Source: an uncultured bacterium
GTDB taxonomy: Bacteria > Bacillota_I > Bacilli_A > RFN20 > CAG-826
DNA: 64,000 nt
Assembly (NCBI GenBank): GCA_949296775.1
Contig: CASFQA010000003.1
Span: forward strand, 47,935-111,934
Direction of reading: 5' to 3'
Part shown: positions 1,895 through 48,024 of the stretch, in pieces
How positions within the stretch are numbered: position 1 is the first letter of the stretch
Layout: each line of letters opens with the position of its first letter
Position numbers and translations under genes: made by a program
Notes under the pieces: generated by a model
What the model was told of the DNA's origin: nothing
Seen by the model: the letters and a program-made list of their open reading frames with translations, nothing else
Database searches by the model: none

Positions 1895-4291
1895 ATGAAG
1901 AAAAGCAAAGTCGATGATTTGGGGTTAACGATCGAAGAAGAGTTGCCCCTTCTTTACGGTGATGGAAACTGGAATTTCCATGGAGTGCCCTCGTTGGAAT
2001 TGCCGGGGGTCAGCATGCGCGATGGGCCGTTGGGATTAAGAATGTCCGATGTCTCGACCGCCTTAGATTCCAATGTGACCCTTCCCTCGACCTGTTACCC
2101 CTCGCCTTCTTTGTTGGCTTGTTCCTTCGATCCTTCGTTGATGGAGGAAGTCGGGTCATCAATGGGACGGGATTGCCGGCAAAATAAGGTGAATGTCCTT
2201 TTGGCTCCCGCCATCAACATCAAACGCAATCCTCTGTGCGGACGGAATTTCGAATATTACTCGGAAGACCCATATTTGACTGGCAAGCTGGCCAGCGGCT
2301 TCATCAAGGGCCTGCAAAAAGAAGGGGTCGGGGCTTGCCTTAAGCATTTCGCCTGCAACTCGCAGGAAAACGGAAGGATGGTCAATGATTCCATCGTCGA
2401 CGAACGGGCGCTGCATGAGCTTTACCTTAAAGGCTTTGAGATCGCCATCACCGAGGGTCGGCCTTGGACGTTGATGACGAGTTACAACAAAATCAACGGG
2501 ACTTACGTTTCCGATTCCGATTATCTGCTAAAGGATCTGCTTCGGAACGAATGGCATTATAACGGAGTCGTCATGTCGGATTGGGGCGGGACCGCCCATT
2601 TCGTTCGTTCCCATAATTATGGCTTGGATGTCGAGATGCCTTGCTTAATCGACCGAAGCAAGGATCTGCTTCGCGCCATTCGGGCGGGGAAACTCGACCG
2701 CCATGCGGTCAAAACCACCGCCGAGCGGATCATCGCTTTATCAAAACGAGTCAAAATCCAAAGCGATAAACCCTTTGATTATTCCGAGGATAAGGCGGCG
2801 GAAGTGGCTTTGCAAGCCGCGCTTAATTCCCTTGTCTTGCTTCAAAATGATGGCGTCCTTCCCCTAAAAAATGGGCTTGCTGACGCCGCGATCATCGGCT
2901 CGCTGGCCAAGCGGCTGCGGATTACCGGCGGCGGCTCTTCCTGCGTGAGCCCCCTTCACGAGGCCAGCTTCCTTGATTGCTTGAAAGACGATGAGCAGAA
3001 GAACTACGCCCCTGGGTACTCCTTTAATCCTAAAGACGACCAAGAGGCTTTGCGGATCGAGGCGGCTGATTTAGCGGCTAAGAAGCAAACGGTCATCTTG
3101 TTTTTGGGGTTAAGTGACCATAATGAATCGGAAGGGTTCGACCGGGAGACTTTATGTCTTCCCGAAGAGCAGCTTCGCCTTTTCGATTCCCTATACTCGG
3201 TCAATCAAAACATCATCGTCGTCTTAAACGTCGGTGCCCCGGTCGAACTGCCTTTCGCCGATAAATGCCGGGCGATATTGCTTTGCTATTTGCCGGGCCA
3301 AGAAGGGGGCGAGGCCATCCGGCGGATCATCGAGGGCGAGGCTTCCCCCTCGGGCAAACTGGCCGAGACCTGGCCGATTCATCTTTCCGATGTTCCCTCT
3401 TTCGGGTTTTACCCAGGGACGGAAGTCCAATCGATTTACCGGGAATCGATCTATGTCGGCTACCGTTATTATCTTTCCTGCGAGAAGAAGACCCGTTTCC
3501 CCTTTGGGCACGGCTTAAGCTATGGCAAATTCAAATACGGCAAGTTGACTCTTTCTGATAGAACCATCGAAGAGGGGAAGGAAGTCAAGGCCAGCATCGA
3601 GGTCACCAACTCCTCCGACGTCGCTTCCGCCTTGACGGTCATGCTTTTCCTTGAGCCGACCGAAGGCAATGTCTTTAAGGCCAAGCGGACCCTCATCGGG
3701 TTCCAAAAACAAACATTCGGCCCAAAAGAGACCAAAATTTACGAGTTCTCCATCCCATATATGGCTTTATCCCATTACGATATCGGCACCTCCGCTTTCT
3801 TAGTCGAAGGGGGTAAATACCAAATCGAGGCTTGCTCTGATGCTGAAACCGTCGAGTCAAAGGCCTGCCTAAAAGCCATCTCGCCTGATCAATTCGCTTC
3901 CAAGATGATGTCGATGCCGATTTATTATAACGTCCCCAAAGGCGGTTTCCTCCAATACGACAACGATTTCGAGGATTTGCTCGGTCACCATGTCTCCATT
4001 GCCAAGGACCCCCGGAGCCGCCCCTATACTTTGGATTCGACTTTCGGCGATATCTCCTCGACTTGGATTGGGAAGATATTGATGAAGAAGGCTCGAGCCA
4101 GTTTCCCCGTCGATGAGAATAACGGCTTCTCGATAATGGTTAGCCGTTCGATCGCCGCCACGCCGATAAGGAACATCGTGATGAACGGATATAGCCAAAA
4201 ATTCGCTTTGGCGGTGGTCGATTTCGCCAACGGGCATATGCTAAAAGGCTTATTTCATTTGCTGTTCGGGGTTCAGCGACGTGATCTTTGA
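1895..4291 (+). CDS. Glycoside hydrolase family 3 (beta-glucosidase/BglX-like) with C-terminal extension
   Basis: GH3 N-terminal domain motifs KHFACNSQE and VMSDWGG (catalytic Asp). GH3 C-domain and FnIII-like region (FGHGLSYGKF). Confidence 0.85.
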   Translation: MKKSKVDDLGLTIEEELPLLYGDGNWNFHGVPSLELPGVSMRDGPLGLRMSDVSTALDSNVTLPSTCYPSPSLLACSFDPSLMEEVGSSMGRDCRQNKVNVLLAPAINIKRNPLCGRNFEYYSEDPYLTGKLASGFIKGLQKEGVGACLKHFACNSQENGRMVNDSIVDERALHELYLKGFEIAITEGRPWTLMTSYNKINGTYVSDSDYLLKDLLRNEWHYNGVVMSDWGGTAHFVRSHNYGLDVEMPCLIDRSKDLLRAIRAGKLDRHAVKTTAERIIALSKRVKIQSDKPFDYSEDKAAEVALQAALNSLVLLQNDGVLPLKNGLADAAIIGSLAKRLRITGGGSSCVSPLHEASFLDCLKDDEQKNYAPGYSFNPKDDQEALRIEAADLAAKKQTVILFLGLSDHNESEGFDRETLCLPEEQLRLFDSLYSVNQNIIVVLNVGAPVELPFADKCRAILLCYLPGQEGGEAIRRIIEGEASPSGKLAETWPIHLSDVPSFGFYPGTEVQSIYRESIYVGYRYYLSCEKKTRFPFGHGLSYGKFKYGKLTLSDRTIEEGKEVKASIEVTNSSDVASALTVMLFLEPTEGNVFKAKRTLIGFQKQTFGPKETKIYEFSIPYMALSHYDIGTSAFLVEGGKYQIEACSDAETVESKACLKAISPDQFASKMMSMPIYYNVPKGGFLQYDNDFEDLLGHHVSIAKDPRSRPYTLDSTFGDISSTWIGKILMKKARASFPVDENNGFSIMVSRSIAATPIRNIVMNGYSQKFALAVVDFANGHMLKGLFHLLFGVQRRDL

Positions 4292-5207
4292 TTTTCTTTT
4301 CGGAAAGGCCCTTCAGAAGGTTTTTGGGAAGCGGGGCGATGGCTTAGCCAGTTTCCGTTATCCGCCGATCAGCTCTTTCGGGGTGAAGACCGAGCCTTTT
4401 TCCTTTCTTAGCGAAGGCACCCTCATCAATGGCGAGGTCGCCTATCCAAACGCCGATCCGCGAGGCTTAGTCGTCTTCTTTCATGGGTTGGGGGCCGGTT
4501 ATACCGCCTATTCCCAGGAAATCGCCTATTATGCCCGTAATGGCTATTTGGTTTATGCCTTCGACTACCACGGCTGCATGACTTCATTGGGGCGGGATAT
4601 GGTTGATCTTGGTCATCCCCTGCTTGACCAAAAGGCCTTTTTCGCCTATTTAGACGCCCAAGAAGCGGCGAAAGGGTTGGCCCGTTATTCGATCGGCCAT
4701 TCTTGGGGCGGGTATCTTTCTTCGGCCGCCTTGGCCTTTCCGGAGTACCGGATCGAGAAAGCCATATCATTCGCCGGCTTCCTCGATATTGCCTCGATCA
4801 TCTTATATAGCGCCCCGACCCTTAAGAAAATGAAAGGGCGGATCAGCGCTTATTTTTCCAGCCGCTACGGAGCGGTGGCGGGCTCTTCGATCATCGAGGT
4901 GGCGAGGGCAAGCGGGAAGCCGTTGCTCTATATCCAAGGAGACGAGGATACGATGGTGCCCTTTTCCGATAGTTTGCTCGCCCTCCGGGAAGCGGGGCTG
5001 CCCAACGTTGAGACGGTGGTGGCAAATAGGCGGGGCCATCAACCGTATTGGAAAATAGAAAGCTATCGTTATTTCAAGCAGATCAACGAGCAATACAAGC
5101 CCGGTTCCTACGACCGTGACCCTAATTTCTTCATTGATTATGCTCGACTTCAGCAAGACGACCCGATAATTATGAAAAGGACAATCGACTTTTTGAAACT
5201 AGGGTAG
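4281..5207 (+). CDS. Alpha/beta-hydrolase (esterase/dienelactone-hydrolase-like)
   Basis: VVFFHGLGAGY oxyanion region and GHSWGG nucleophile elbow. Overlaps the GH3 stop by 11 nt, suggesting translational coupling. Confidence 0.7.
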   Translation: MIFDFLFGKALQKVFGKRGDGLASFRYPPISSFGVKTEPFSFLSEGTLINGEVAYPNADPRGLVVFFHGLGAGYTAYSQEIAYYARNGYLVYAFDYHGCMTSLGRDMVDLGHPLLDQKAFFAYLDAQEAAKGLARYSIGHSWGGYLSSAALAFPEYRIEKAISFAGFLDIASIILYSAPTLKKMKGRISAYFSSRYGAVAGSSIIEVARASGKPLLYIQGDEDTMVPFSDSLLALREAGLPNVETVVANRRGHQPYWKIESYRYFKQINEQYKPGSYDRDPNFFIDYARLQQDDPIIMKRTIDFLKLG

Positions 5208-5222
5208 TAGAATACCGCCCGT

Positions 5223-5308
5223 GCACTGGTGGCGGAACTGGTATACGCGCTAGTCTCAGGAGCTAGTCGGGCTTCCCGGTGTGAGTTCAAATCTCATCCA
5301 GTGCACCA
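5223..5308 (+). tRNA. tRNA-Leu(CAG), class II with long variable arm
   Basis: Near-identical in layout to E. coli tRNA-Leu(CAG): GCACTGG acceptor, GGTGGCGGAAcTGGTAtACGCG D-arm, anticodon loop CTCAGGA, long variable arm, GTTCAAAT T-loop, encoded CCA. Confidence 0.85.
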
Positions 5309-5320
5309 TATAATTGGCTG

Positions 5321-5397
5321 CTGCGCTCATAGCTCAGTTGGATAGAGTGCAAGCCTCCGAAGCTTGAGGTCGGGCGTTCGAGTCGCCCTGGGCGCGC
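5321..5397 (+). tRNA. tRNA-Arg(CCG)
   Basis: GCGCTCATAGCTCAGTTGGATAGAG...anticodon stem CAAGC/GCTTG with loop CTCCGAA, GTTCGAGTC T-loop, CCA encoded. Confidence 0.85.
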
Positions 5398-5410
5398 CAA
5401 ATTGAAAATA

Positions 5411-5436
5411 ACCTCGATTAGTTCGAGGTTTTTTTG
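5411..5436 (+). terminator. Rho-independent terminator after the tRNA pair
   Basis: Stem CCTCGA/TCGAGG with loop TTAGT, followed by T8. Confidence 0.6.
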
Positions 5437-5489: not shown

Positions 5490-6161
5490 CTAACGCCAGT
5501 TTCCCAAAGCCCATGCGATGCCTTTGGCCATTCGCCTCTCGCCGTCGACGAAATGATTGCCGTGGTTCATCTCGAATATCGTCTTGATTCCTTTTTCCTC
5601 CAAAAAGCGGCGGAAGGCTAAGGTATTGTCCTCGACCGGCTGGAGAATCCTGTTTTTCGTTTTCTTTTCCTTATCCCCTAAAGACAAGTAGACGGAATTG
5701 ACGGTAGGGGAAAGCCGATTCTTTCTCGCAAAGTCCAGGAAGCCTGGATACCAAAGCGAACCCGAGGCTGATACTAAGGATGCGAAGCGGTCGGTCTTAA
5801 AACCGGCGTATAAAGCGAATAAGCCCCCTAGCGAATAGCCGGCGATGATCCTTACTTTTGGCTTCAGCCCATTATTTCCTTCCAAAGAGGGCAAAAGCTT
5901 CTCCAGCAGATAAGCGAGGTATTCATCGGCTTTCCCTTGGCAGGGGGTGTCGTTTTGGCTGATCCTTTCGATGGGCCAAGGGGTCAGGTCATCGTCCCAA
6001 CGGAGGTTGGAAATGACGACGAGGTTGGCTTCAGGGGCTTGGAGTTTTCCTAATTCTTCCTTGATGGCTGCCCCGTCCTTCATATAGGAATTGAGGACGA
6101 CCAAAGGGAGACTCGGATCGGAACCGAGGAACGTTTCAAGCGTCAAATCATCTCTTTCCAT
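5490..6161 (-). CDS. Esterase family protein (PF00756-like 'putative esterase'/Fes-IroE-like a/b-hydrolase)
   Basis: IIAGYSLGGLFALYA nucleophile elbow. Start overlaps the stop of the upstream adenylation-GNAT gene by 14 nt. Confidence 0.65.
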   Translation of the reverse strand: MERDDLTLETFLGSDPSLPLVVLNSYMKDGAAIKEELGKLQAPEANLVVISNLRWDDDLTPWPIERISQNDTPCQGKADEYLAYLLEKLLPSLEGNNGLKPKVRIIAGYSLGGLFALYAGFKTDRFASLVSASGSLWYPGFLDFARKNRLSPTVNSVYLSLGDKEKKTKNRILQPVEDNTLAFRRFLEEKGIKTIFEMNHGNHFVDGERRMAKGIAWALGNWR

Positions 6162-8028
6162 CAGGTCTATAGAACATGTAGTAGTTCTTCAGCTCAAAGC
6201 CGAGCTTTTGATACAACGGGCGGCCGGCCCTTGATGACTCGAGGTAGATTTTGCCGACTCCAGCCTGTTTAGCTTCTTCCATCAGTTTTTTCATGATCAG
6301 TCGGCCAAACCCGCGTTTCCGCAGCGACTCATCGACGTAGACGTTCATCAAAAACGCCACCTTGCCGGATTTATTCTCCGGGGATGGGAGTTCTTTTTGA
6401 TAGCATATATCCCCCGATCCGACGATTCTTTCGCCATCGAATAAGCCATAGGCTACATGGCGGAGGTTCCGACATCCCTCGATAAATTCCTGCTTGTTGC
6501 CCTCTTTGATCTTTGCTTGCTCTTCATTGCTATAGACCGAATAGCAGGCGAATACTTCCTTAAGCACCTTCTGCCTTTGGTCGGCCCAGGCTTCGGCTTC
6601 GTTCAGCCCGAATTTTCGTAAATTGAAGCGCAGGGACCGTCGATCGAGCTTACCGTTTTCGGTCAAAGGCATCTTGGGCAAGAAAACGAAATGCTCCGGA
6701 ATCATATAAGGAGGCAGATAAGCGCTTAGCTCATCTTTAATCTGCTCTTCCTTAAAAGGGGAGACCAAACAGGCTTTAAGGTGGGCTAATCCTTCCTCAT
6801 CGTAAACGGCGACGACCGCGGCCTCGCTTGCCAGCCCTTTGTTCAGGATGAGGTTTTCAACCTCCATCGGCTCGACCCGTTTGCCATAGATCATGACCTG
6901 AGCATCATTCCGCTTGAGGAAGTTGAGGTCGCCCTCTTCGTCGTAATAGGCGAGGTCGCCGCTTCGGAAGGACGGAACGCCATCGATCGTAAGATATCCT
7001 TGGCGGAGATTGCCGACGTAGCCTAAGCCTACCCCGGCCCCCTGGATGATGATCTCGCCTATTTGGTTCGGCTTATTTATCCTCTGCCCGTCTTTTTCCA
7101 AATAGACCTGATACCCTTCGATGCCTTTTCCGATTGGGAAGGTCCCATCCGGATTGGGCGTTTTCACCGTGGAATCGCAATAGGTGCAGCAAACGGTGGT
7201 CTCGCTTGGGCCATAGGTGTTGTAAACCTTAAACCGCTTCCGGATTTTATCGACGTAAGAAGCCCGCAAAACATCACCACCGGAGATGAATAAACGGAAA
7301 CAGCCCGGCAAATCGTCTCGGGAATTCCATTCTTTGAACAAATAGGGGAAGGAAGAAACGACAGTTACCTCTTTTTCTTCGCAAAACTTTAATAAACGTT
7401 CAGTATTTTGCTTGGTTTCATCGTTTGGGATTGCGAGGCTCGCCCCGTTAAGAAGGGAAGCGAAAACCTCTTCGGTGAAGATATCGAAGGTACATACCGA
7501 ATGCTGCAGAAAAGTGTCGGTATTCCTTAGATGGAATTCGTTTTGGAAGGCTTTGACGTAGCCGAGGATATTGTCTTCGGCGATCATCACTCCCTTCGGT
7601 TTGCCAGTTGAGCCGGAGGTGAAGAGGATATAGGCTAATCCGTGAACGCCTTTGGGCTCCTTGGGCTGATCAGGGCTCCATATTCCGATTTGAGGCAAAG
7701 AAGGGCAGAACTGAGGGCTCGGCGCATCGAGGAAGAGGCAATCGGCTTGGCCGATCCCCATCATCTTTTCGATTCGTTTGCTAGGGAAGTCGGGCTCAGC
7801 GATGATATAGGCGAGACCCGATTTCAAGGCGGCGAAGATGGCAGCGAGTTGCTGCGGCCCATGTTTCATGACGATCCCGACTCGTTTCGCTTCCAAGGGT
7901 ATCTTGCGGCTGAAATGCTCAATCAAGCTCAAAAAGTCGGAGTAGGTATAGTCTTTTTCCTCCGTCTTGAGGCAAATAGCGCTTGGGGCGCCATTCGCGA
8001 TGGATAGCAGACGTTCGTAAATTTTCAT
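6148..8028 (-). CDS. Stand-alone NRPS-type amino-acid adenylation (ANL) domain fused to a C-terminal GNAT acetyltransferase domain. No PCP/thiolation domain.
   Basis: A-domain core motifs A3 LAYILFTSGSTGKPKGV, A5 NTYGPSETTV, A7 FRSGDLAYY, A8 KRNDAQVMIYGKRVEPMEVE and A10 ENGKLDRR. The C-terminal 150 aa carry a GNAT motif (RKRGFGRLIMKKLMEEAKQAGVGKIYL...YQKLGFE). No DxFFxLGGHS PCP motif. Confidence 0.8.
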   Translation of the reverse strand: MKIYERLLSIANGAPSAICLKTEEKDYTYSDFLSLIEHFSRKIPLEAKRVGIVMKHGPQQLAAIFAALKSGLAYIIAEPDFPSKRIEKMMGIGQADCLFLDAPSPQFCPSLPQIGIWSPDQPKEPKGVHGLAYILFTSGSTGKPKGVMIAEDNILGYVKAFQNEFHLRNTDTFLQHSVCTFDIFTEEVFASLLNGASLAIPNDETKQNTERLLKFCEEKEVTVVSSFPYLFKEWNSRDDLPGCFRLFISGGDVLRASYVDKIRKRFKVYNTYGPSETTVCCTYCDSTVKTPNPDGTFPIGKGIEGYQVYLEKDGQRINKPNQIGEIIIQGAGVGLGYVGNLRQGYLTIDGVPSFRSGDLAYYDEEGDLNFLKRNDAQVMIYGKRVEPMEVENLILNKGLASEAAVVAVYDEEGLAHLKACLVSPFKEEQIKDELSAYLPPYMIPEHFVFLPKMPLTENGKLDRRSLRFNLRKFGLNEAEAWADQRQKVLKEVFACYSVYSNEEQAKIKEGNKQEFIEGCRNLRHVAYGLFDGERIVGSGDICYQKELPSPENKSGKVAFLMNVYVDESLRKRGFGRLIMKKLMEEAKQAGVGKIYLESSRAGRPLYQKLGFELKNYYMFYRPDGKR

Positions 8029-8104
8029 CTTATTATTTTAGACTTTTTTCTCTTGGATAAAAACCTAATGAGAGATATATAGAAATAGGAATAATCAAAC
8101 AGTC

Positions 8105-8146
8105 TTTGAAATAAGTTCAATGTCTCATTGAAGTGACTTTGAAGTA
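8105..8146. repeat. 42-bp perfect direct repeat, copy 1 (second copy at 9669-9710). Contains the palindrome TTCAATGtctCATTGAA at 8116-8132.
   Basis: Sequence tttgaaataagttcaatgtctcattgaagtgactttgaagta is identical at both positions. The preceding 4 nt also match except for one base. Confidence 0.9.
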
Positions 8147-8194
8147 GACATTGAAGTGAGATTGAAGTAAACATTGAAATTACATTGAAAACTT
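8127..8194. repeat. Six degenerate tandem 11-12-bp units (A/T)TTGAAGTnnnC, followed by ACTTGGT x2, upstream of the AlbA_2 gene
   Basis: The six units read attgaagtgac, tttgaagtagac, attgaagtgag, attgaagtaaac, attgaaattac and attgaaaactt. The array is iteron-like and sits in the divergent promoter region. Confidence 0.8.
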
Positions 8195-8229
8195 GGTCGA
8201 ACTTGGTAACATATTACTGAGGTTAATTT

Positions 8230-9666
8230 ATGTTTCTTAAAGATATCTACCCGTTCTTCAAGATAGAGGATAAAACTATTGAGTGTAAGCTTCGTCTTAA
8301 CGACGATTCGTTTTCTTGGCTTAAAACCGTCGCCGGCTTTGCCAATAGCGGAGGCGGGGTCTTATTTGTCGGGGTCAAGCCAGATGATTTCTCTCTCGCG
8401 GGCATGGACTTGTCTACCGCGGATAAGCAAAAGCAGCTTTTTTATCAAAATGTTAAAAACCGCATTCAGGCTGATTTGCATATTTCAACCGATCTTTTGT
8501 CATATGCCGATTCCGGGCATGATCTTTATGTTTTAAAAATCAACGTTGAGGAATCGGACAAGAAGCCGGTTATCCTCATGCATCAGGGTTTTCCGATGGT
8601 TTTCGTCCGAAATGACGGATTCACTTCTCCCGCGACCCAGGAAGAGTTGGTTTTCATGTCGACCCGTCATGAGCAAACTCATTTTGATGAGATGACAACC
8701 GACATTCCCTTCTCTATTGATGACTTTCACGATTTAGATGCTTTTAGGTTTTCTCGGACCAATCAGCATTTGAACGCGAAGGAGTTGGAATCCTTGCCGT
8801 TTTTCGATAAGGATGGGAAGCTTTATCGTGGCTCATCTCTGTTTTCGGATTCCTGCGATGAAGCCAATACTAAGATTGTTTGCTCGGTTTACCCCGGTTT
8901 CACCAGGGGAAGCGATTTGGTCATTGCCAGCAATTCCTTTGTTGGCAACCTAGTGCAAGGGTACGAGTTCATGAACGAGTTTGTTCGCACGAGGATGAAC
9001 CGCGGCTTTTTGAAAACCGGGGATGGCCGGATCGACGTCGATGCCTATCCGGAACGGGCTCTATTCGAGGCGATCATCAACTCTTTGGCCCATCGCGATT
9101 ATTTCATTCCCGGATCGCAGATTTCTTTGGACATGTTCAAAGATCGGCTTGTCATTACTTCTCCTGGCTCTTACTATCAAAGCGGCCCTTTAAAGCCGAC
9201 TTATGATTTAGCGGGTTTCGCTTCCCGACGACGAAATGAATATATTTGCCGTATTTTCTGTTATTGCAAGGCGATGGAAGCCAAAGGGACTGGGTTTGAG
9301 CGGATTGTAAGTGACTACGCTTCCGCCGATGAACGCCATAAGCCTTTCATTTATTCTAAGAACTCTTTATTTTCCATCGTTCTCCCGGATTTGACTTATG
9401 CCGCCGGGGTCAGCATTGAAACGGACTCGATTTCCGTTCTGTCGGAAAATTTGCTGACCTCTAAGTATGATTTGGAGATACTTTCCTATTGCTATGGGGC
9501 GAATCGGGACGTAAAGGATATCGCTAAGCATATCGGCCTCACCAATTCATCCTATCTTCGGAATGTCATTATTGGGAATTTGATCAAAATAGGCTATTTA
9601 GATTCTATAAAAATCGGCAACGCCCAATTCTTCTCATCCAATAAAGAAAAAGTAACTTTGAAATAG
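8230..9666 (+). CDS. AlbA_2 (Schlafen-like, 'divergent AAA/putative DNA-binding') domain protein with C-terminal HATPase_c_4-like region. Often annotated RecG-like transcriptional regulator.
   Basis: The N-terminus (IECKLRLNDDSFSWLKTVAGFANSGGGVLFVGV) matches the AlbA_2/PF04326 signature. The gene is about 40% GC against a surrounding level of about 50%. It is flanked by the 42-bp direct repeats. Confidence 0.6.
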   Translation: MFLKDIYPFFKIEDKTIECKLRLNDDSFSWLKTVAGFANSGGGVLFVGVKPDDFSLAGMDLSTADKQKQLFYQNVKNRIQADLHISTDLLSYADSGHDLYVLKINVEESDKKPVILMHQGFPMVFVRNDGFTSPATQEELVFMSTRHEQTHFDEMTTDIPFSIDDFHDLDAFRFSRTNQHLNAKELESLPFFDKDGKLYRGSSLFSDSCDEANTKIVCSVYPGFTRGSDLVIASNSFVGNLVQGYEFMNEFVRTRMNRGFLKTGDGRIDVDAYPERALFEAIINSLAHRDYFIPGSQISLDMFKDRLVITSPGSYYQSGPLKPTYDLAGFASRRRNEYICRIFCYCKAMEAKGTGFERIVSDYASADERHKPFIYSKNSLFSIVLPDLTYAAGVSIETDSISVLSENLLTSKYDLEILSYCYGANRDVKDIAKHIGLTNSSYLRNVIIGNLIKIGYLDSIKIGNAQFFSSNKEKVTLK

Positions 9667-9668
9667 TG

Positions 9669-9710
9669 TTTGAAATAAGTTCAATGTCTCATTGAAGTGA
9701 CTTTGAAGTA
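9669..9710. repeat. 42-bp perfect direct repeat, copy 2, starting 3 nt after the AlbA_2 stop codon
   Basis: Identical to 8105-8146. Internal palindrome at 9680-9696. Confidence 0.9.
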
Positions 9711-9772: not shown

Positions 9773-9859
9773 TGGTGCCCGAGGCCGGACTCGAACCGGC
9801 ACGAGTTCATCACTCAGCGGATTTTGAGTCCGCCGCGTCTACCATTCCACCACACGGGC
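9773..9859 (-). tRNA. tRNA-Leu(CAA), class II. Has a U6:U67 mismatch in the acceptor stem.
   Basis: Reverse complement reads GCCCGTG-TG-GTGGAATGGTAGACGCG-GCGGA[CTCAAAA]TCCGC-long variable arm-GCCGGTTCGAGTCCGGC-CTCGGGC-A-CCA. Anticodon CAA. Confidence 0.7.
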
Positions 9860-23232: not shown

Positions 23233-25218
23233 ATGAGGAAAAAATCTACGTTGCTAGCTCTCTCGGTATCGGCGTTGCTGCTTTTGGGAAGCTGCGATCC
23301 CGCGCGTACGTCAAGTAGCGAGGAAAGTCCGGTCGATACCACTTCGAAGACGACCCCCGTAACGGATACCACCTCGGATACCGATTCGGAAACCACGCCG
23401 ACCATTACCGTCGACATCACCACCACGGTCACCGAGGTCGAGACCGAGGGAACTTTGGAGTTGACCGCCACCGTAACCGGAGCGGAAGGCGCCAAAGCGA
23501 CTTGGGCCATCAAAACCAAAACTCCGGCGGAGATGGATGCCAGCATCGGCGCCGAAACCGGCGTTTTGAATGCCGGCACTGTAGCCGGAACTTTAGTCGT
23601 TACCGCAACTTATGGGGGCGTTAGCGATGAAATCACCATTACCGTTAAAGAAGCGCCGAAAGTAACGACGGTTAAGATTCTTGGCGCGCCGAGCGAAACC
23701 GTGTATACCGGGACTAACCTCAAGTTAGACGCCTATGTCACTAACGGGCCTGATGGTTATCGCGTTAACTGGACCTGCACGACCGATCCAGCGGATATGG
23801 GCGCGTCGGTCGATGCGAATGGCAACGTCTCAACCGGTACTAAGCCTGGTAAGATCACGGTTACCGCGAGAGTAGGCGAAGCGAGCGATTCGGTTGTCAT
23901 TACCGTAGTCGAGGCGCCGGTCGTCTCCGTCGATATCACGACCACCGACACGCAGGTGGCGATCGGCGGCACCCTTCAATTAGCCGCCTCCATCACCAAT
24001 GGAGAGGATGGGGCCAAACCGACCTGGGCCATCACTAGCAAAGCCCCGGAGACGATGGATGCGACCATCGACCCAGCTACTGGATTGTTAACTGCTGGCA
24101 AAGTTCCGGGCAAGTTGACCGTCACCGCCGCTTACGAAGATGCGGTCGACTCTATTGAGATCACTATTCCGGACCCGGCTTTCGCTACCGATGTTTTCCC
24201 AGCCTCGTATAAGATGACGATCGGCGATTCCTATTTCGAACTCGTTCAAGGAAAAGGCATAATTCTGTCGGGCGCATCCAACGTATATGGTTATATTTTG
24301 GTCGATGAGGTGCTCTACACTGCTGCATACGACGAAAAGCAAGGTTACGTCTATCGTCTTGATCAACCTCTATCGCCCGGTGTTATGACGGTTGATGAGG
24401 CTTTTGCAACCTTCGACCTAAATGCCGATGCTGCGAAATACACCTATGCCTCAACCGATGCGGCAACTGGTAATCACACTTATATCATCGACATAGACGG
24501 CACTCGCGCCCAAGATCTCATTAAGATTTTTGGGATATTTCCGGAGACCGCTAAGGCCGTCGTTAATCCTGATGGTGATCTCGTCTCCTTTACCTTCGTC
24601 GAGGAGGGCAAGGATATAGCCGCCACTATCACCGCGGTCGATGATTTGAGTGAGGAATACAAAGCCTATGTTGGAATCACTATCACTGGCGCCCCGAGTA
24701 AAGCCCCGACTAACGACGAGATCCCACTCGATTTGAATCTGGTCGGCGTCGATGAAGCGGATATTACTTGGTCGATCGTCAAGAACCCAACCACTATGGA
24801 TGCCACCATCGATCAGGACGGCATTCTCCATACCGGGTCGGTTGCCGGGACGGTTACCGTTCGGGCGGCGGCTGGCGATTATTATCATGAGGTCACCATC
24901 GAAATCCAGGTTGTCACTGTCGATATCGGCGGCGTTCCGACCGAACCGGTTTTGACCGGGCAAACGGTCGAGCTAGTTGCTAATATCACCAATACCGACG
25001 AGACGCCGGTCTGGTCGATAACAATGGTGGCCAAAGAGGATGGCAAGACGATGGATGCCACCCTCGATCAAGATGGCATCCTCCATACTGGCACCGTTGG
25101 CGGGACCATTACCGTCACCCTCAGCGTCGCTGGTTACTCTGACGAGGTCGATATCGTAGTTAAGCAACAGCTTAGCGATGGTGGAGCGACCGACGAAGGC
25201 GTGACCGAAGATTGGTAA
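23233..25218 (+). CDS. Surface lipoprotein with about six tandem Big_2 (bacterial Ig-like) domains
   Basis: LLLLGSC lipobox and a Thr/Asp-rich stalk. Repeated units of the form TWAIKTKTPAEMDASI...GTLVVTATYGGVSDEITITV. Confidence 0.75.
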   Translation: MRKKSTLLALSVSALLLLGSCDPARTSSSEESPVDTTSKTTPVTDTTSDTDSETTPTITVDITTTVTEVETEGTLELTATVTGAEGAKATWAIKTKTPAEMDASIGAETGVLNAGTVAGTLVVTATYGGVSDEITITVKEAPKVTTVKILGAPSETVYTGTNLKLDAYVTNGPDGYRVNWTCTTDPADMGASVDANGNVSTGTKPGKITVTARVGEASDSVVITVVEAPVVSVDITTTDTQVAIGGTLQLAASITNGEDGAKPTWAITSKAPETMDATIDPATGLLTAGKVPGKLTVTAAYEDAVDSIEITIPDPAFATDVFPASYKMTIGDSYFELVQGKGIILSGASNVYGYILVDEVLYTAAYDEKQGYVYRLDQPLSPGVMTVDEAFATFDLNADAAKYTYASTDAATGNHTYIIDIDGTRAQDLIKIFGIFPETAKAVVNPDGDLVSFTFVEEGKDIAATITAVDDLSEEYKAYVGITITGAPSKAPTNDEIPLDLNLVGVDEADITWSIVKNPTTMDATIDQDGILHTGSVAGTVTVRAAAGDYYHEVTIEIQVVTVDIGGVPTEPVLTGQTVELVANITNTDETPVWSITMVAKEDGKTMDATLDQDGILHTGTVGGTITVTLSVAGYSDEVDIVVKQQLSDGGATDEGVTEDW

Positions 25219-29307: not shown

Positions 29308-30765
29308 ATGTCTATTAAAAACATCCGAAAACCATTGATGCTAACCCTCTGCATGCTGGCCCTCCCATTAATGGGGTGCCACGACGAAAACACAAGCGGA
29401 GATAGCAGCGAGGGCCCTAAAATCAACGTCGACTATTCTTCAGCAAAGGCGGCGATCGATTCCATCCAAGGGGCCCAAAATTACACGGTCGCGACCAAGA
29501 TCGTCGAAAACATGAATATCGGTACCGCCGATGAACCGGTCTATTCCAAGATTACGACCAATTTCAGCAATTACTTCACCCCGACTTATACTTGGTGTGA
29601 TTATGAAGACGCAGAGGAAGGCTACGCTTCTAAAGACGGGGCGGTCTTCCACCTTAATCTTTATAACGACGAAATCATCGCTTCTGATGCCTACGTCGAT
29701 GAAAGCGGGAATAAGCTGACCTCGATTTATGATATCGTGGTCTCTCCGATTCCCGCCGCTTCTTTTGTTGAGTCCGCGGACGCCAACGCCCAAACGATCA
29801 ATATCTCCAACAAGAACGCCCGGTTGGCGTTTATCGAATTCATTCAGTTCGACGAGACTTTCTTCGCCGATGTGCAAAGCTTCACCGCTTCAATTGGGAC
29901 CAGTGAGGATGGCGAGCAGGCTTTGGTTCTGACAATGACGGGGACCGATGAAACCGTCATAACCTCGACTTTCCATAGTTTTGGCTCCACTTCGGTGAAT
30001 GAGGTTGCTGCGTATTTGAATTCCGAAGGCAGCGGGGCCGCTGTTTACGATTCGACTTTGGTTAAAGCCATGGATGGCTTCTTGGGCAACAATTTCACCA
30101 AATTGACCTACGAATCTTTGAATTACAGCGAGGATAACCCGGTTATCGGGGAGGAGATTTATCATTCCGATTACTGGTATGGCGGATATTATCCTGATTC
30201 CGGATATTCCATCTATTCTCTTGGTTACGTGAGCTTGCCGCAGAAAACCTATGTCGACGAAAGCGAAGGGCTCGAAGTCGATCTCGATGGGGCTTATCTT
30301 TTCTATCTCAACGAGACCATGACGGAGTTGCGGACCATCGCTTTGGCCTATCCAGCCTTCACCACCAATGTTTCGGATATGGCATTCATCATGGATTATC
30401 CGAGCAATATGGTGCTTTGGAATCATAATCTTCAATTCATGCAGCCCTATGAGGATCCAAGCCTTGGATTAGATGGGGAGATGTTCATCACCTATGACTA
30501 TTATATGATGTATGACTTTTTCGAAATCGCCCAGGTCATGAACTCGCTGCAGGCCGCGACCACGGTCATGAGCTGCGTGCTCATTGACCTAATTATGGTC
30601 GTGAATCTCGATAACGCCGGTAACTTGGATACGGTTGATTTCCTATTTGACATCTTGCTTAACGGATCATCCGTCACCCTCCAATATACTTATACGGATT
30701 TTGGTACCACCACGATTCCGGCACTTGATGAGTGGATGCAAACCTATATCCGCGATCAGCAATAA
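29308..30765 (+). CDS. Lipoprotein, unknown function
   Basis: LALPLMGC lipobox. No catalytic motif recognised. Confidence 0.6.
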   Translation: MSIKNIRKPLMLTLCMLALPLMGCHDENTSGDSSEGPKINVDYSSAKAAIDSIQGAQNYTVATKIVENMNIGTADEPVYSKITTNFSNYFTPTYTWCDYEDAEEGYASKDGAVFHLNLYNDEIIASDAYVDESGNKLTSIYDIVVSPIPAASFVESADANAQTINISNKNARLAFIEFIQFDETFFADVQSFTASIGTSEDGEQALVLTMTGTDETVITSTFHSFGSTSVNEVAAYLNSEGSGAAVYDSTLVKAMDGFLGNNFTKLTYESLNYSEDNPVIGEEIYHSDYWYGGYYPDSGYSIYSLGYVSLPQKTYVDESEGLEVDLDGAYLFYLNETMTELRTIALAYPAFTTNVSDMAFIMDYPSNMVLWNHNLQFMQPYEDPSLGLDGEMFITYDYYMMYDFFEIAQVMNSLQAATTVMSCVLIDLIMVVNLDNAGNLDTVDFLFDILLNGSSVTLQYTYTDFGTTTIPALDEWMQTYIRDQQ

Positions 30766-31606: not shown

Positions 31607-34252
31607 ATGAAACAAAAGAACCTCCTTTTGCTCCTGAGCGCCGTCGCCCTCACCGCTTGCGGACCGACTGGAAATTCCAGTTCGTCAAGCCAAACAGGCG
31701 ATGGTTCGGGCTCAGGGGATAGCCAAGTGTCGGATAGCGACACCGGCAGCACGACCACCCCGATTGGATCGGATTCCGACACCGGTGGCGGTTCGAGCGA
31801 AGAAACCACCTACACCATCCGGATCGAAGGGCTTCCGACCGGGGTCAGCGTCACCGTTGACAAAGATTCGGCGAAGCCTGGCGAAACCGTAACCGTTACC
31901 GTCACCGTCGAAGATGGATTCGAATTGGGCTATTTGCTTATCAACGGCGAGCCCATCACCGTCGGCAGCGACGGCAAGGCGACCTTCACGATGCCTAATC
32001 GTTCGGTCAGCATCGCCGTCACCGTCAACGCCATCGGGGAAATCACTCTCCGCGGGCAGATTTCCGCCGTCTTGAAAGAGGAAACCGAAGGTTCTGGCCT
32101 CTACGTCGCCCGCAATGTTGCGGTTCCGCAGTCGGCGGCTTTCTCCTTCATGGTCGGCACCACCGAACTCGACATGTCGGATATCGACTGGACTAAGTGC
32201 TTCGCGCCGCTTACTTACAACAATTCCGGCACTGGCGCCCTCAAGATCGAAGGTGGGGCGACCTATGACTTCTATTATGATGACAACGCCGATGAGGAAA
32301 CCGGCCGTTGCTACATCAAGAAAGTCAAACAGGATAAGCTTCCGGACAGCCCCGAGACCTTGAACAATCTCTTCCAAGGCATGGCTCGGAGCGAATCGAC
32401 CATGAATCCGGATGATGTCTTGAAGATCGAATACACCAACAAGGTCACCGGCATTGATTACGATTATCAGAACTACACCAACGGGTCCTATGCTGAGGCC
32501 CATAACCTCAAGGACGAAAACAAGCTTGTCGGCGTGGTTGATAAGAAAATTGATGGGGATGTCCTCTCGGTCGTCAATACCTATCTTGATGATGGCGAAT
32601 CCTACTATTCTGGCAATTATCAGAAGTATTCCGCTAAATACGGCATCGTCGACAAAACCACCGATATCGGCACTGGCTTAGGCCGTTATTCTCGCGTCCG
32701 TTCGATGGCCGATTACGAAGCTCACTTCTACGCCCATAACTATGAATCGATCTATTTCGACATCATGTATGCTTATTACATCGGTTATGACACCTCGGCC
32801 GACATCGGCACCGAAGGCTTAGGGCAATTCGAGCGGAAGATCGTCTCGACTGCGACGGCCGATGGATTCACCGTTGACCTCGATTCTTATCGTGAGATCG
32901 ACACTTCCAATTCCACCCAGGTCGATGAAGAAGATCGGGAGACCAGTTTCTATACCTACGCTATCGACTTCAAATTCGATACCGCCGGCCGCTTGCTGAC
33001 CCTTGATTTCGATGGCAAGGTCTACGATAGCGATGCTTATGACTTCGCGACCCACCAAATCATCGATGCCAATGATTTCACGACCATATTCGACATCACC
33101 ATCGCCTATACTTACGGCACTCCAACCGAGGCCAATACCCATGACGATTCCGCTTACTTCACCTCGAAGATGGGCGTCACCGTCCGGGATGAGGATCTTG
33201 GCGAGGAATATGCCGATAAGAACGCCATCCAGCGGACCAACAATGATTCCGATGCCGCGGTCAATGCCCATATGACTTTGACTTCGGACAAGGCGACTGC
33301 TGTCGATTTGGAGAACTTCACCATCATTTCGAGCTCCGATACCTCGATCATCGGGCCGCGTGGCGCTCTTGAGCCCTATACCTGGATTCCGAAGAAGAAA
33401 GGGACTGCCACCCTTACCATTGGCAATCCGGCTGTTCCTTCGGTCCCGCAGACTCAGATCGAAGTCGAGGTTGTCGATAACGCACAAGTCCGCTCCTTCT
33501 ATTTGACTGGAAAAGACGGTGTCTACTCGCCTTCTCAGGACCTTCTTGATACCGCCAACTCCTTCACCTTGAATGCCGGCACGACCCGGACCTTCCGGAT
33601 CATCGGTTCGCCGGATGATATTAACGTCCCCTGCACTCCCGTCTCCTCTGACCCGGATTTGCTCGAGGTCAGTTCCTATCAAGGGACGGATGGTTACTAC
33701 TATCTCTATGCTTCGGCTAAAAAAGCCGCAGTCACGCAAAAGACAAGGGTCACCATCACCATTGAATCCGACTACTATATGCCGGAATGGGCCGATTCTC
33801 CGTCAACCGTTGCCGTTGATATCCTGCCGGCTTCCGACTTCAATCCGATTGGCACTTGGTACTACATCACCGAGTACGACTCCAATTATGTTGCGACCGG
33901 TGTCAACAAGGATGTGGTCATTACGTTGAAGGAATACGATGGCACTGAAGCGACCGTATCGACCGTCGTCGACGAAAAGGGCAACACCTATAAGTTTGGC
34001 TTCAACGTCGATCCGGAAACCAAAACCTATTCCTACACTCATATCGATGGCGGCAACGTCTCCTATGTCTCAATTGTCGAAACCGAAGACGGCTACCTCG
34101 GCTTAGTTCTCGAAGCTGATGACGCTCAGTGGACCGGTCAAGACGAAGGCACCGATTCGACCATTGTCTTCGGCAACGTCGTTTATGACGAAGGAATGAT
34201 CATGAGCGAAGAATACGATGGCTTCGCTCCGGCCGCTGATTTCGCCGATTAA
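31607..34252 (+). CDS. Large surface lipoprotein with an Ig-like (Big-type) domain
   Basis: LLLSAVALTAC lipobox, Gly/Ser/Asp stalk, and a Big-like segment TIRIEGLPTGVSVTVDKDSAKPGETVTVTVTV. Confidence 0.65.
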   Translation: MKQKNLLLLLSAVALTACGPTGNSSSSSQTGDGSGSGDSQVSDSDTGSTTTPIGSDSDTGGGSSEETTYTIRIEGLPTGVSVTVDKDSAKPGETVTVTVTVEDGFELGYLLINGEPITVGSDGKATFTMPNRSVSIAVTVNAIGEITLRGQISAVLKEETEGSGLYVARNVAVPQSAAFSFMVGTTELDMSDIDWTKCFAPLTYNNSGTGALKIEGGATYDFYYDDNADEETGRCYIKKVKQDKLPDSPETLNNLFQGMARSESTMNPDDVLKIEYTNKVTGIDYDYQNYTNGSYAEAHNLKDENKLVGVVDKKIDGDVLSVVNTYLDDGESYYSGNYQKYSAKYGIVDKTTDIGTGLGRYSRVRSMADYEAHFYAHNYESIYFDIMYAYYIGYDTSADIGTEGLGQFERKIVSTATADGFTVDLDSYREIDTSNSTQVDEEDRETSFYTYAIDFKFDTAGRLLTLDFDGKVYDSDAYDFATHQIIDANDFTTIFDITIAYTYGTPTEANTHDDSAYFTSKMGVTVRDEDLGEEYADKNAIQRTNNDSDAAVNAHMTLTSDKATAVDLENFTIISSSDTSIIGPRGALEPYTWIPKKKGTATLTIGNPAVPSVPQTQIEVEVVDNAQVRSFYLTGKDGVYSPSQDLLDTANSFTLNAGTTRTFRIIGSPDDINVPCTPVSSDPDLLEVSSYQGTDGYYYLYASAKKAAVTQKTRVTITIESDYYMPEWADSPSTVAVDILPASDFNPIGTWYYITEYDSNYVATGVNKDVVITLKEYDGTEATVSTVVDEKGNTYKFGFNVDPETKTYSYTHIDGGNVSYVSIVETEDGYLGLVLEADDAQWTGQDEGTDSTIVFGNVVYDEGMIMSEEYDGFAPAADFAD

Positions 34253-46099: not shown

Positions 46100-48024
46100 T
46101 TATGAATAAGTACAAAACCATCGATTACCCCGCTTCGGTCGGGGAGAAAGAAGCGGGGAAGGAACCGGTTCTTTCGGTTCGAAACCTGGCCATCTCCTTT
46201 AAAACCGACGAGGGGATGGTCAAAGCCGTCCGCGGCGTCTCCTTCGATTTATATAAAGAGGAGACCCTTTGCATCGTCGGCGAGTCCGGTTCGGGCAAAT
46301 CGGTCACCAACAAAACCATCATGGGCATCCTCCCCAAAAGCGCCCGCATCGAATCGGGCTCGATCGTCTATGAAGGCGAGGATTTGACCCAGGTTTCCGA
46401 GGACGAATTCCATAATATCCGGGGGACTAAGATCGGGATGATCTTCCAAGACCCCCTTTCCTCCTTGAACCCGATCATGAAGATCGGCAAGCAAATCACC
46501 GAGGTCATGCTCATCAACGGGCATCACCTGAAGAACCTTTTCAAGGACATCGTCAACGACGTCTTCATCAAGCTGAAGAACGATGAGCGTTTGCTTGAGC
46601 TCGCCAAAAGCGATTTGAAGCATTCGCTTGCCGATATCAAGGCCAAGATCGCCCAGGAAAAGAAAAACGCCAAGGCCGAGGAACGGACGCCGAACCTCGA
46701 GCCTTTGCTAGCCGAACAGGCCAAGGCCAAACAAGCCTTCATCGACAAGAAAGCCGAATTGAAGAACGTTATCGTTATGGATAAAGCGGCTTACGCGGCG
46801 AAGAAAAAAGAAGCGAGGGCGGCGGTTAAAGCCAAGAAGACGGAACTCTTGAAGGAGCATTGGGCCAACTTGAAGCCTATTTGGAAGTCCTTCTTCGACA
46901 AAGGCCCCTCCCAGCAGGCTAAGGCCAAGATCGCCGAGGCGAAAACGCGTTATCAAGAGGCCATGGCTAAGCCAGAGAACAACCCGAGCGAAGATGAACT
47001 CATCGACCTTTACGCCTCCATCGTCAACCCGAAGGAGAAGCAGGTCGCGGAGGTTAAAAAGAAACTCGAGGCTTTATCCGCCGATAAGGGGAATGAAGCG
47101 GGGCTGCTTGCCTATAACGAATGCCGGCTAGCCCTTCGCGACGCCAAAAAAGAAGCCGCTTCCGCCCGAAAAGAGGCGAAGAAGGCGATGCATGAGAGGA
47201 AGTATGGGGCCCGCGACGCTTATCGCGCCGAGGTCCGGCCGCTTTATCGGTCTTTGTTGACCTTCCCGGCCTTTAAGAAAGCCTATGATGATTTCCTGCT
47301 CGAGCATCGGCGTTATCTTTCCTGCCTCCGGGTCACCCATAAGGAAGCCAAGGACCGGGCCTTGAAGATCATGGCCGAAGTCGGCATCCCTCAACCGGAA
47401 CGGCGGTTCTATCAATACCCGTTCGAGTTCTCCGGCGGCATGCGCCAACGGATCGTCATCGCCATCGCCTTGACCGCCCATCCGGACATTTTGATCTGCG
47501 ATGAGCCGACCACCGCCCTCGACGTCACCATCCAAGCCCAGATCCTCGAATTGATCAACGAGCTGAAGGCCAAGCACCATATGTCGGTCATCTTCATCAC
47601 CCATGACTTAGGGGTCGTCGCCAACATGGCGGACCGGGTCGCGGTTATGTATGCGGGGAAAATCGTCGAATACGGGAAGGCCGATGAGGTCTTCTATTCG
47701 CCCGCCCATCCTTATACCTGGGCTTTGCTCTCCTCGATTCCCGACGTCGATTCGAAGGAAAAACTCGAGGCGATTCCCGGCACCCCGCCGAACATGCTTT
47801 TCCCGCCGAAAGGCGATGCCTTCGCCGCCCGAAGCAAATACGCCCTCGGGATCGATTTCAAGGAAGAGCCCCCGATGTTTCAGATTTCCCCTTCCCATTA
47901 CGCCGCCACCTGGCTGCTTGATGAAAGGGCGCCGGAACATAAGATGCCCTCGATCGTCGCGACCCGGATCAAGAATTCCTTGAAACGGGCCGGCAAGACT
48001 TCCGGAGGAAAGAAAGATGAATGA
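46096..48024 (+). CDS. oppD: Oligopeptide ABC transporter ATPase OppD with a Lys/Ala/Glu-rich insertion of about 250 aa
   Basis: Walker A GESGSGKSVT, then a coiled-coil-like insert, then the signature FSGGMRQRIVIAIAL, ILICDEPTTALD and the H-loop ITHDLG. The start may be the GTG at 46096 or the ATG at 46102. Confidence 0.85.
   Translation: MIMNKYKTIDYPASVGEKEAGKEPVLSVRNLAISFKTDEGMVKAVRGVSFDLYKEETLCIVGESGSGKSVTNKTIMGILPKSARIESGSIVYEGEDLTQVSEDEFHNIRGTKIGMIFQDPLSSLNPIMKIGKQITEVMLINGHHLKNLFKDIVNDVFIKLKNDERLLELAKSDLKHSLADIKAKIAQEKKNAKAEERTPNLEPLLAEQAKAKQAFIDKKAELKNVIVMDKAAYAAKKKEARAAVKAKKTELLKEHWANLKPIWKSFFDKGPSQQAKAKIAEAKTRYQEAMAKPENNPSEDELIDLYASIVNPKEKQVAEVKKKLEALSADKGNEAGLLAYNECRLALRDAKKEAASARKEAKKAMHERKYGARDAYRAEVRPLYRSLLTFPAFKKAYDDFLLEHRRYLSCLRVTHKEAKDRALKIMAEVGIPQPERRFYQYPFEFSGGMRQRIVIAIALTAHPDILICDEPTTALDVTIQAQILELINELKAKHHMSVIFITHDLGVVANMADRVAVMYAGKIVEYGKADEVFYSPAHPYTWALLSSIPDVDSKEKLEAIPGTPPNMLFPPKGDAFAARSKYALGIDFKEEPPMFQISPSHYAATWLLDERAPEHKMPSIVATRIKNSLKRAGKTSGGKKDE

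Follow-up and report, generated by a model that had tools for sequence, protein, structure and literature searches.

A conserved module of adenylation domain, GNAT and esterase, with a lysine-like specificity code and no carrier domain, in gut and rumen anaerobes

In a 64-kb stretch of DNA from an uncultured bacterium (contig CASFQA010000003.1; hereafter, the window), a gene for a 626-amino-acid (aa) protein that joins an adenylation (A) domain of the nonribosomal peptide synthetase (NRPS) type to a GNAT domain overlaps the gene for a 223-aa esterase of family PF00756. Our analysis of relatives shows that A domain, GNAT and esterase make up a conserved three-part module, of which the window carries the fused form. 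Each part belongs to a familiar family (ANL/NRPS A domain, GNAT, PF00756); the combination is not described in the libraries and literature that we searched. From the specificity code of the A domain, our best guess at its substrate is lysine, and we tentatively favor a mechanism in which carrier-free lysyl transfer would be followed by N-alpha-acetylation and then by ester hydrolysis. An earlier note on this DNA, made from the sequence alone, had described the fusion and its esterase partner; new here are the predicted lysine specificity, the unfused three-gene form as the common state, the spread across phyla, and the mobile-element and regulator context.

A conserved and mobile three-part module

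The open reading frames (ORFs), domains, coordinates and 14-nucleotide (nt) overlap given in the earlier note all hold (Table 1). Pfam places AMP-binding at residues 11-337 (E 7e-52), AMP-binding_C at 389-460 (E 1e-9) and Acetyltransf_1 (PF00583) at 508-611 (E 6e-14; 52.7 bits, cutoff 20.7) of the 626-aa protein, and the 223-aa protein matches PF00756 with 46.8 bits (cutoff 22). Both proteins have near-identical or clear homologues (up to 99% identity for A-GNAT and 96% for the esterase, with thousands of matches at E<1e-10), so we regard both as real genes. Because A and GNAT are fused, the cassette consists of two genes in the window. The esterase ATG falls inside the final codons of the A-GNAT gene, which suggests translational coupling; the overlap on which the note had based co-translation is confirmed, and it makes co-translation plausible. 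A hairpin downstream of the esterase likely marks the end of the operon, in common with the convergent tRNA genes. No riboswitch or T-box leader was found before the operon, either in the window or in the 10 loci checked.

We scanned one genome per species and analyzed the best 80 loci by ORF calling and BLAST. Relatives turn up in four phyla: at least 522 species, which belong to Bacillota, Bacteroidales, Coriobacteriia and Treponema, carry one. The hosts are gut and rumen anaerobes, namely Clostridia, Erysipelotrichaceae and Negativicutes; Bacteroides, Prevotella and Muribaculaceae; Coriobacteriia; and Treponema. Cultured hosts include Lachnospira multipara, Butyrivibrio proteoclasticus, Dubosiella newyorkensis, Absicoccus porci and Clostridium estertheticum. 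Database matches comprise fused A-GNAT proteins (38-99% identical) and many A-only proteins of ~490 aa (43-47% identical). In the contigs that we read, the A-only genes are followed directly by a separate GNAT gene of 152-153 aa and then by a PF00756 esterase gene, and an esterase gene likewise adjoins the fused A-GNAT genes, either before or after them.

A and GNAT are fused in 11 of the 80 loci and separate but adjacent in 65 (together 76/80). Junctions between A and GNAT and between GNAT and esterase are mostly -8 to +20 nt in other species, so that the separate genes, too, would be coupled in translation. The esterase is present in 53 of 71 evaluable loci (adjacent in 42, nearby in 10, fused to A in one) and absent from 18 of the 71 despite at least 1.5 kb of flank; eight loci are truncated. 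The one fusion, in Absicoccus porci (locus L091, 5314-7446), is a single 710-aa ORF with the esterase at the N-terminus of A and a separate GNAT gene next, making it reciprocal to the fusion in the window. Based on these counts, A and GNAT form an obligatory core and the esterase is a frequent accessory, and because both A-GNAT and esterase-A fusions occur, all three enzymes are tied together. The partnership with an esterase claimed in the note is supported, and these counts make it far stronger than the window by itself could show.

The nearest relatives of the window are an uncultured 'Bacilli' metagenome-assembled genome (MAG; 80%) and Candidatus Alloenteromonas (54%, syntenic). Between phyla, A proteins reach maximum identities of 91.5% (Bacillota/Bacteroidales), 73% (Bacillota/Actinomycetota) and 69% (Bacillota/Spirochaetota). 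There are clear signs in the sequences that the cassette has spread horizontally, with recent inter-phylum transfer. Several loci lie between integrases or adjoin relaxase or Mob genes, and one is on a plasmid of Clostridium estertheticum, a complete plasmid on which the PGAP names are generic. A phage origin was rejected, as relatives in IMG/VR are only 26-28% identical and no phage contig there carries the cassette.

The cassette has recurrent neighbors. An HxlR-type regulator is found beside it in 20 loci (Bacillota) and an AraC-type regulator directly upstream in 17 (Bacteroidales); YjbR/MmcQ DNA-binding proteins, ABC or MFS exporters, UvrA-like proteins, a Sat4-like GNAT and flavin reductases also recur. 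SIR2-like genes are near only 4 of the 80 loci, with no conserved deacetylase, and PADLOC gave no match for A-GNAT or the esterase. In three Bacteroides MAG loci (L041, L048, L054), a basic-amino-acid/polyamine antiporter directly follows the GNAT, in the place of the esterase; these loci also have a small YjbR/MmcQ gene before A and the S278D variant of the specificity code described below. We discarded YjbR/MmcQ as a chemical clue, since all that the literature reports for these proteins is a fold that binds DNA. A 'radical SAM mobile pair protein B' (TIGR04470, 419 bits, cutoff 410) is a neighbor in 10 loci, repeatedly just downstream (L020, L022, L024, L071, L072, L079, L083, L089, L094, L003/L004), and is often accompanied by a 250-aa protein weakly like pair protein A. 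The radical SAM neighbors were rejected as lysine aminomutases: one is this TIGR04470 protein, and another, of 536 aa, is of a generic twitch/SPASM type.

Adenylation domain and its predicted substrate

The A domain has recognizable A3 (TSGSTGKPKG), A5 (NTYGPSE), A7 (SGD), A8 (GKRVE) and A10 (NGK, K460) motifs, which vary little or not at all among 22 aligned relatives (39-80% identity to the window protein). These intact and conserved catalytic motifs support the prediction that it adenylates its substrate. The best-scoring model is TIGR01733 (AA-adenyl-dom; 263.5 bits, under its cutoff of 317.4), and the closest solved structures are the NRPS A domains LgrA, GrsA, TycB and SrfA-C.

We mapped the specificity positions on GrsA (1amu range 231-341 against query fragment 5-117, with a 2-residue insertion) and obtained the Stachelhaus code DIESIGTVCK (D182, I183, E186, S225, I248, G250, T271, V279, C280, K460), in which D182 and K460 are the equivalents of Asp235, which binds the alpha-amino group, and Lys517. 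The code is identical in 114 of 121 database relatives and, at the species level, in 60 of 78 proteins from four phyla. Its only common variant, S278D (DIEDIGTVCK), is more acidic still and is found in 10 proteins, all from a Bacteroides/Muribaculaceae clade. The nearest published code is the lysine code of BacB module 1, DAESIGSV (PMC3207962), which is identical at 6 of 8 positions and differs by A->I and S->T. The invariant Asp235 equivalent, together with the acidic residue at position 239, points to an alpha-amino acid with a cationic side chain, and the code as a whole is lysine-like.

Other assignments of the A domain did not hold. DltA was rejected, with 214 bits against 476 (NF003417) and 210.6 against 559.85 (TIGR01734) and no MBOAT, DltC or DltD nearby, and acyl-CoA-synthetase orthology was ruled out on scores and context. 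The glycosidase and hydrolase genes that adjoin the cassette raised the idea of a feruloyl esterase with a CoA ligase and a hydroxycinnamoyl transferase; this was rejected, given the Asp235 typical of amino-acid activation and the lysine-like code of the A domain, and because these neighbors are kept only among the close relatives of the window.

A GNAT in the place of a carrier

The GNAT starts ~8 residues after K460, at the position of the carrier domain in NRPS proteins, and the LPxP motif of the linker between A and thiolation (T) domains is kept in most fused relatives. Only ~8 residues lie between K460 and the first GNAT strand, and a hidden peptidyl carrier protein (PCP) domain was looked for in the 626-aa protein and rejected. 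By Pfam, the 27 large ORFs of the 64-kb window contain no PP-binding, condensation, thioesterase or phosphopantetheinyl transferase (PPTase) domain; no small ORF in a six-frame translation of the whole 64 kb has a G-x-D-S-[LI]-type motif; and no carrier is among the called genes of seven relatives' contexts with Pfam labels. The Pfam scans of the window otherwise show transporters, a CopA/CsoR pair, glycosidases and surface proteins. The earlier note is therefore upheld in describing a complete A domain and a real GNAT without a PCP, and in finding no carrier, condensation or thioesterase gene nearby; re-inspection gave no PCP, the protein is not DltA (dltBCD are also absent), and the GNAT region is not a misassigned linker.

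The GNAT domain scores above the Pfam gathering threshold, has the GNAT fold, and carries an R-x-x-G-x-G form of the Q/R-x-x-G-x-G/A coenzyme A (CoA) motif. Its E597 and Y606 align with E103 and Y115 of RimI and are invariant in 74-75 of 76 GNATs of the family. In RimI, these residues are the general base and acid, and we predict the same catalytic role for them here. C542, E546 and P548-S549-P550, which form a hairpin C542...E546-x-P-S-P, are likewise invariant in 74-75 of the 76. They are specific to this family: the nearest solved GNAT, 3mgd (with acetyl-CoA), has A, F and P-T-Y at these places. The hairpin residues could bind substrate or serve as a covalent nucleophile.

The structural neighbors of the GNAT are 3mgd, the tabtoxin-resistance protein, AAC(6')-Iy, and N-terminal, thialysine and polyamine acetyltransferases, that is, small-molecule or alpha-amine acetyltransferases rather than Fem or MprF-type transferases. 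The subfamilies Sat, AAC, ArsN, AblB, EctA and MshD were considered and rejected, as they gave weak generic matches only, far under their cutoffs.

An esterase with siderophore-esterase folds as nearest relatives

The esterase has a Ser-His(-Glu) set of catalytic residues and the expected fold, and S110 (in GYSLGG), E165 and H203 are invariant. No signal peptide was obvious by eye in its sequence. Its six nearest folds are all siderophore esterases: IroE-like 3gff (22.4), EstB (22.1), Fes (21.7), PfeE (21.1), BesA (21.0) and IroE (19.0). The substrates of these enzymes are enterobactin, bacillibactin and triacetylfusarinine C, all of which are esters of N-alpha-acylated amino acids. Siderophore salvage was rejected as a role, because no transport or iron genes are linked. 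The Fes equivalog gives 37.2 bits against a cutoff of 222, and siderophore uptake and synthesis genes are absent from the window and from related loci.

A possible reaction sequence

The similarities of the three enzymes converge on an N-alpha-acylated aminoacyl ester or thioester. As the best available mechanism, though one that we consider less likely than not, we propose that a self-contained, inducible and mobile three-enzyme cassette would make and turn over an N-alpha-acetyl-lysyl conjugate without a carrier. The A domain would adenylate L-lysine or a very close cationic analogue, as read from its code. With no carrier at hand, the adenylate may give up its lysyl group straight to a soluble nucleophile; alcohols, amines and thiols, CoA among them, are candidates. 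The RimI-like GNAT would then use acetyl-CoA to cap the free alpha-amino group of the lysyl conjugate, a step suggested by three features: its CoA motif is conserved, a Glu and a Tyr match positions 103 and 115 of RimI, and its structural neighbors are small-molecule or alpha-amine acetyltransferases. Finally, the cytosolic Ser-His-Glu hydrolase would cleave the ester or thioester of N-acetyl-lysine, whether for release, recycling or proofreading of the product, given that its nearest structural relatives all cleave esters of N-acylated amino acids; this step would be accessory, since roughly one locus in four has no esterase. Expression would be under an adjacent regulator, which is HxlR-type in Bacillota, AraC-type in Bacteroidales and possibly AlbA_2-type in the window.

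The scheme builds on domain identities, conserved catalytic residues and genetic coupling, from which we infer the substrate, the acceptor and the order of steps. The antiporter that follows the GNAT in three Bacteroides loci counts in favor of lysine or another cationic substrate. Candidate roles are a stress or xenobiotic response, or the production of a small lysine-derived metabolite. The earlier note had offered three roles, of which a minimal amide- or ester-forming pathway in which the esterase edits or reverses the product fits best, given the RimI-like GNAT and esterase folds that act on N-acylated amino-acid esters; aminoacylation of a lipid is unlikely, as all three proteins are soluble and there is no conserved membrane partner.

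Several points weigh against the lysyl-transfer scheme. The lysine assignment is a prediction from the specificity code, and the scheme supplies no acceptor molecule. A pathway makes little sense if its last enzyme undoes the work of the first, unless product release or editing is what the esterase is for, and this enzyme is missing from 18 of the 71 evaluable loci. The invariant C542, E546 and PSP motif have no explanation under the scheme. Lastly, a GNAT with no specific family match could use an acyl-CoA other than acetyl-CoA.

Alternative explanations

Possible, though on the whole unlikely, is an Ebony-like reaction in which the A domain would be a lysine-CoA ligase, the GNAT, rather than acetylating, would serve as the condensation catalyst and transfer lysine from lysyl-CoA to an amine or hydroxyl, and the esterase would be a proofreading thioesterase or would undo the product. 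The GNAT does sit at the carrier/condensation position of an NRPS, just past A10, and the retained LPxP linker motif fits this arrangement. Drosophila Ebony offers a precedent, in that its A domain is followed by a GNAT-fold domain that carries out condensation (Izore 2019, as cited in PMC8072286). The invariant E546 and E597 and the cysteine of the GNAT could bind or carry the di-cationic lysyl group. However, the residues of the GNAT and its nearest structure, with bound acetyl-CoA and a RimI-like Glu/Tyr pair, are those of ordinary acetyl-CoA users, and this route, too, supplies no acceptor. To our knowledge, amino-acid A domains form aminoacyl-CoA only as an in vitro side reaction, which also counts against this explanation.

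Also unlikely, but the most novel possibility, is a hitherto unrecognized carrier-free mini assembly line, in which the NRPS-derived A domain would hand lysine, or a close analogue, straight to the GNAT. The product could be a small N-acylated lysyl ester, amide or lactam that serves as a diffusible signal, antimicrobial or stress protectant, with the esterase as its dedicated turnover enzyme. The Cys542/Glu546/P-S-P hairpin might even take the place of phosphopantetheine, either covalently or by binding.

We consider it distinctly unlikely that the cassette confers resistance to, or detoxifies, a cationic amino-acid antimetabolite or an aminoacyl-nucleotide antibiotic, with the A domain recognizing or activating the toxin, in the manner of MccE (GNAT) with MccF (serine hydrolase), Ttr or PAT. 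The cassette travels as cargo of mobile elements, with integrases, relaxases and Mob proteins, and identity between the A proteins of Bacillota and those of Bacteroidales goes up to 91.5%. Its recurrent HxlR/AraC regulators, efflux pumps, Sat4-like GNATs, UvrA-like proteins and flavin reductases would suit such a function, as would the tabtoxin-resistance protein and thialysine acetyltransferase among the structural neighbors of the GNAT. Yet known amino-acid antimetabolites are handled by a GNAT alone, which leaves an ATP-consuming, catalytic A domain with no evident role, and there is neither a match to a resistance-gene family nor a known candidate toxin.

It is improbable that the protein works conventionally, as a DltA-like or NRPS loading enzyme that depends on a carrier from a gene in another part of the genome. 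The A domain is NRPS-type throughout, of DltA-like size and matched by DltA models at 210-214 bits, and trans-acting A domains are known; against this, those scores are far under their cutoffs (476, 560), the window and seven gene-labeled contexts contain no dltBCD, carrier or PPTase, and the GNAT fills the carrier position. Since the cassette moves between phyla as a unit of two or three genes, it would be surprising if it relied on a carrier particular to its host.

Self-regulation, which the earlier note had also raised and for which we found no specific support, is very improbable: the GNAT would acetylate K460, its own A10 lysine, as Pat and AcuA do for acetyl-CoA synthetase, with the esterase as deacetylase, and while AcsA, AcuA and AcuC offer a three-gene analogy, K460 belongs to the C-terminal subdomain, to which the GNAT is joined, and the A10 P-x4-G-K is present (as it is in all ANL enzymes), this would leave the A domain with no downstream function and the conserved code and esterase-A fusion unexplained, the GNAT matches neither the AcuA nor the Pat family, and known lysine deacetylases are sirtuins or zinc histone deacetylases (HDACs), not siderophore-type serine esterases. 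The remaining probability goes to an explanation outside those considered here.

Relation to known systems

The A domain resembles NRPS A domains such as that of BacB module 1 in its ANL/NRPS architecture and motifs, its alpha-amino Asp, its A10 Lys and eight residues of its code (DIESIGTV vs DAESIGSV). A stand-alone, carrier-independent A domain is known in ORF19 of streptothricin biosynthesis. Unlike NRPS A domains, the one in the window has no T, condensation or thioesterase domain or gene nearby, is always paired with a GNAT, and scores 263 against the TIGR01733 cutoff of 317; and the cassette is a mobile unit of two or three genes in strict anaerobes, not a biosynthetic cluster. DltA is similar as a stand-alone amino-acid A domain of ~500 aa in Bacillota (E 4e-41 to solved DltA structures), whereas the family described here has a different specificity code and also occurs in Bacteroidales, Coriobacteriia and Treponema.

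Ebony (A-T-C_N) with Tan shares the order of an A domain followed by a GNAT-fold domain, the amide-forming logic, and a separate hydrolase that reverses the product. In Ebony, which activates beta-alanine, a phosphopantetheinylated T domain separates A from the GNAT-like domain, whereas the window protein has no T; Tan is a cysteine hydrolase, whereas the window enzyme is an alpha/beta serine esterase. We compared Ebony and Tan by fold class only.

Other pathways also attach an amino acid and then acetylate it. These are MshC/MshD (mycothiol), Ngg (a fusion of GNAT and peptide ligase that makes N-acetylglutaminylglutamine amide, with a partner peptidase) and Pur6/Pac/NapH (puromycin). They share with the cassette an ATP-dependent attachment of an amino acid, N-acetylation by a GNAT, and a hydrolase for turnover or deprotection, but their ligases are aminoacyl-tRNA-synthetase-like, ATP-grasp or other enzymes rather than A domains, and their acceptors are known. 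The Ngg model gave weak matches only (E 0.03-0.08). None of these systems, Ebony/Tan included, pairs a carrier-less A domain with a GNAT.

Compared to Fes, IroE, PfeE, BesA and EstB, the window esterase is shorter and ~20% identical, and it is tied genetically to A and GNAT. Acs/AcsA with Pat/AcuA and CobB/AcuC are alike in grouping genes for an ANL enzyme, a GNAT and a hydrolase; there, however, the GNAT modifies the A10 lysine and the hydrolase is a sirtuin or HDAC, to which the GNAT and esterase of the window have no specific similarity. In the literature that we searched on the cassette and its code, we found no description of the triad or of DIESIGTVCK, and NCBIfam, PADLOC and PGAP provide generic names only, with no named family for the triad.

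Genomic context in the window

Coordinates of the cassette and of the features around it are given in Table 1.

Table 1. Features of the cassette and its immediate surroundings (positions are those of the window)
Feature	Position	Strand	Description
Terminator-like hairpin	5410..5430	minus	3' of esterase stop; pattern match only
Esterase gene	5490..6161	minus	ATG start (6161), 223 aa, PF00756; cytosolic alpha/beta serine hydrolase, siderophore-esterase structural clade
A-GNAT stop / esterase start overlap	6148..6161	minus	14 nt, ATGGAAAGAGATGA
A-GNAT gene	6148..8028	minus	ATG start, 626 aa; TGA at 6148-6150
GNAT domain	6151..6627	minus	Residues 468-626; CoA motif R-K-R-G-F-G
P548-S549-P550 codons	6388..6396	minus	Family-specific invariants
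C542-E546 codons	6400..6414	minus	Family-specific invariants
A domain	6628..8028	minus	Residues 1-467; NRPS-type, all core motifs
A10 catalytic lysine codon, K460 (GrsA K517)	6649..6651	minus	Invariant G459-K460 in alignment of relatives
Divergent intergenic region, presumed promoter/operator	8029..8229		Upstream of A-GNAT; holds tandem array with 11-nt period
Iteron-like tandem array	8126..8189		5.6 copies of 11-nt unit CATTGAAGTGA, about one helical turn per copy
Schlafen/AlbA_2 + HATPase_c_4 gene	8230..9666	plus	478 aa, divergent; Pfam

Upstream of the cassette in the window is a divergent gene for an AlbA_2-type protein. It adjoins the cassette only in the window and two other loci (L018 and L045), where it occupies the position held by HxlR or AraC regulators in other lineages, and it is possible that the protein is a local regulator outside the conserved core. 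The 9-nt core of the tandem array occurs in 6 copies in the window, compared to 0.8 expected, and 5 of the 6 flank the AlbA_2 gene. This gene is also bracketed by a 70-nt direct repeat (8077-8146 and 9641-9710; 87% identical, with the last 44 nt identical and a spacing of 1564 nt), which looks like an insertion or duplication signature, or like shared operator sites. The syntenic 54% relative (L001) lacks the AlbA_2 gene, and the 80% relative (L018) has it, with the 9-nt motif ACTTCAAWG on both sides.

Genes for tRNA-Leu(CAG) and tRNA-Arg(CCG) (5223-5399) lie just downstream of the esterase, and a tRNA-Leu(CAA) gene (9773-9859) lies beyond the AlbA_2 gene. With tRNA genes on both sides, the cassette sits in a tRNA-flanked islet of ~4.4 kb. 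Convergent on the cassette, at 1895-5207, a GH3 glycosidase gene overlaps the gene for a 308-aa S33-type alpha/beta hydrolase by 11 nt. The best model for the glycosidase is an exo-alpha-(1->6)-L-arabinopyranosidase, under cutoff, and the pair is syntenic in L001 and L018 and not kept elsewhere.

Farther away, at 40023-49417, is an Opp-type peptide ABC operon with unusually long parts. Its binding protein has 891 aa, its OppC-like permease 731 aa and its ATPase 642 aa; in the ATPase, two stretches make up the ABC domain, with an AAA_21 match between them. Large ORFs of 379-881 aa with no Pfam match at E<=1e-5 (23233-25218, 29308-30765, 31607-34252, 37187-39283 and 51802-54827) adjoin surface proteins with LRR_5/Flg_new and Big_2 domains.

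Implications

The occurrence of the cassette in at least 522 species, its near-invariant code and its recent inter-phylum transfer suggest a specific, selectable chemistry that is common to the gut microbiota. The cultured hosts make the cassette directly testable. If the mini assembly line is real, hundreds of anaerobes of the gut and rumen would make its product and trade it across phyla. Altogether, solving the cassette would add a carrier-independent route of amino-acid activation and transfer, and something new would probably come to light with it, either a metabolite of the microbiome or a mobile function in resistance or stress.

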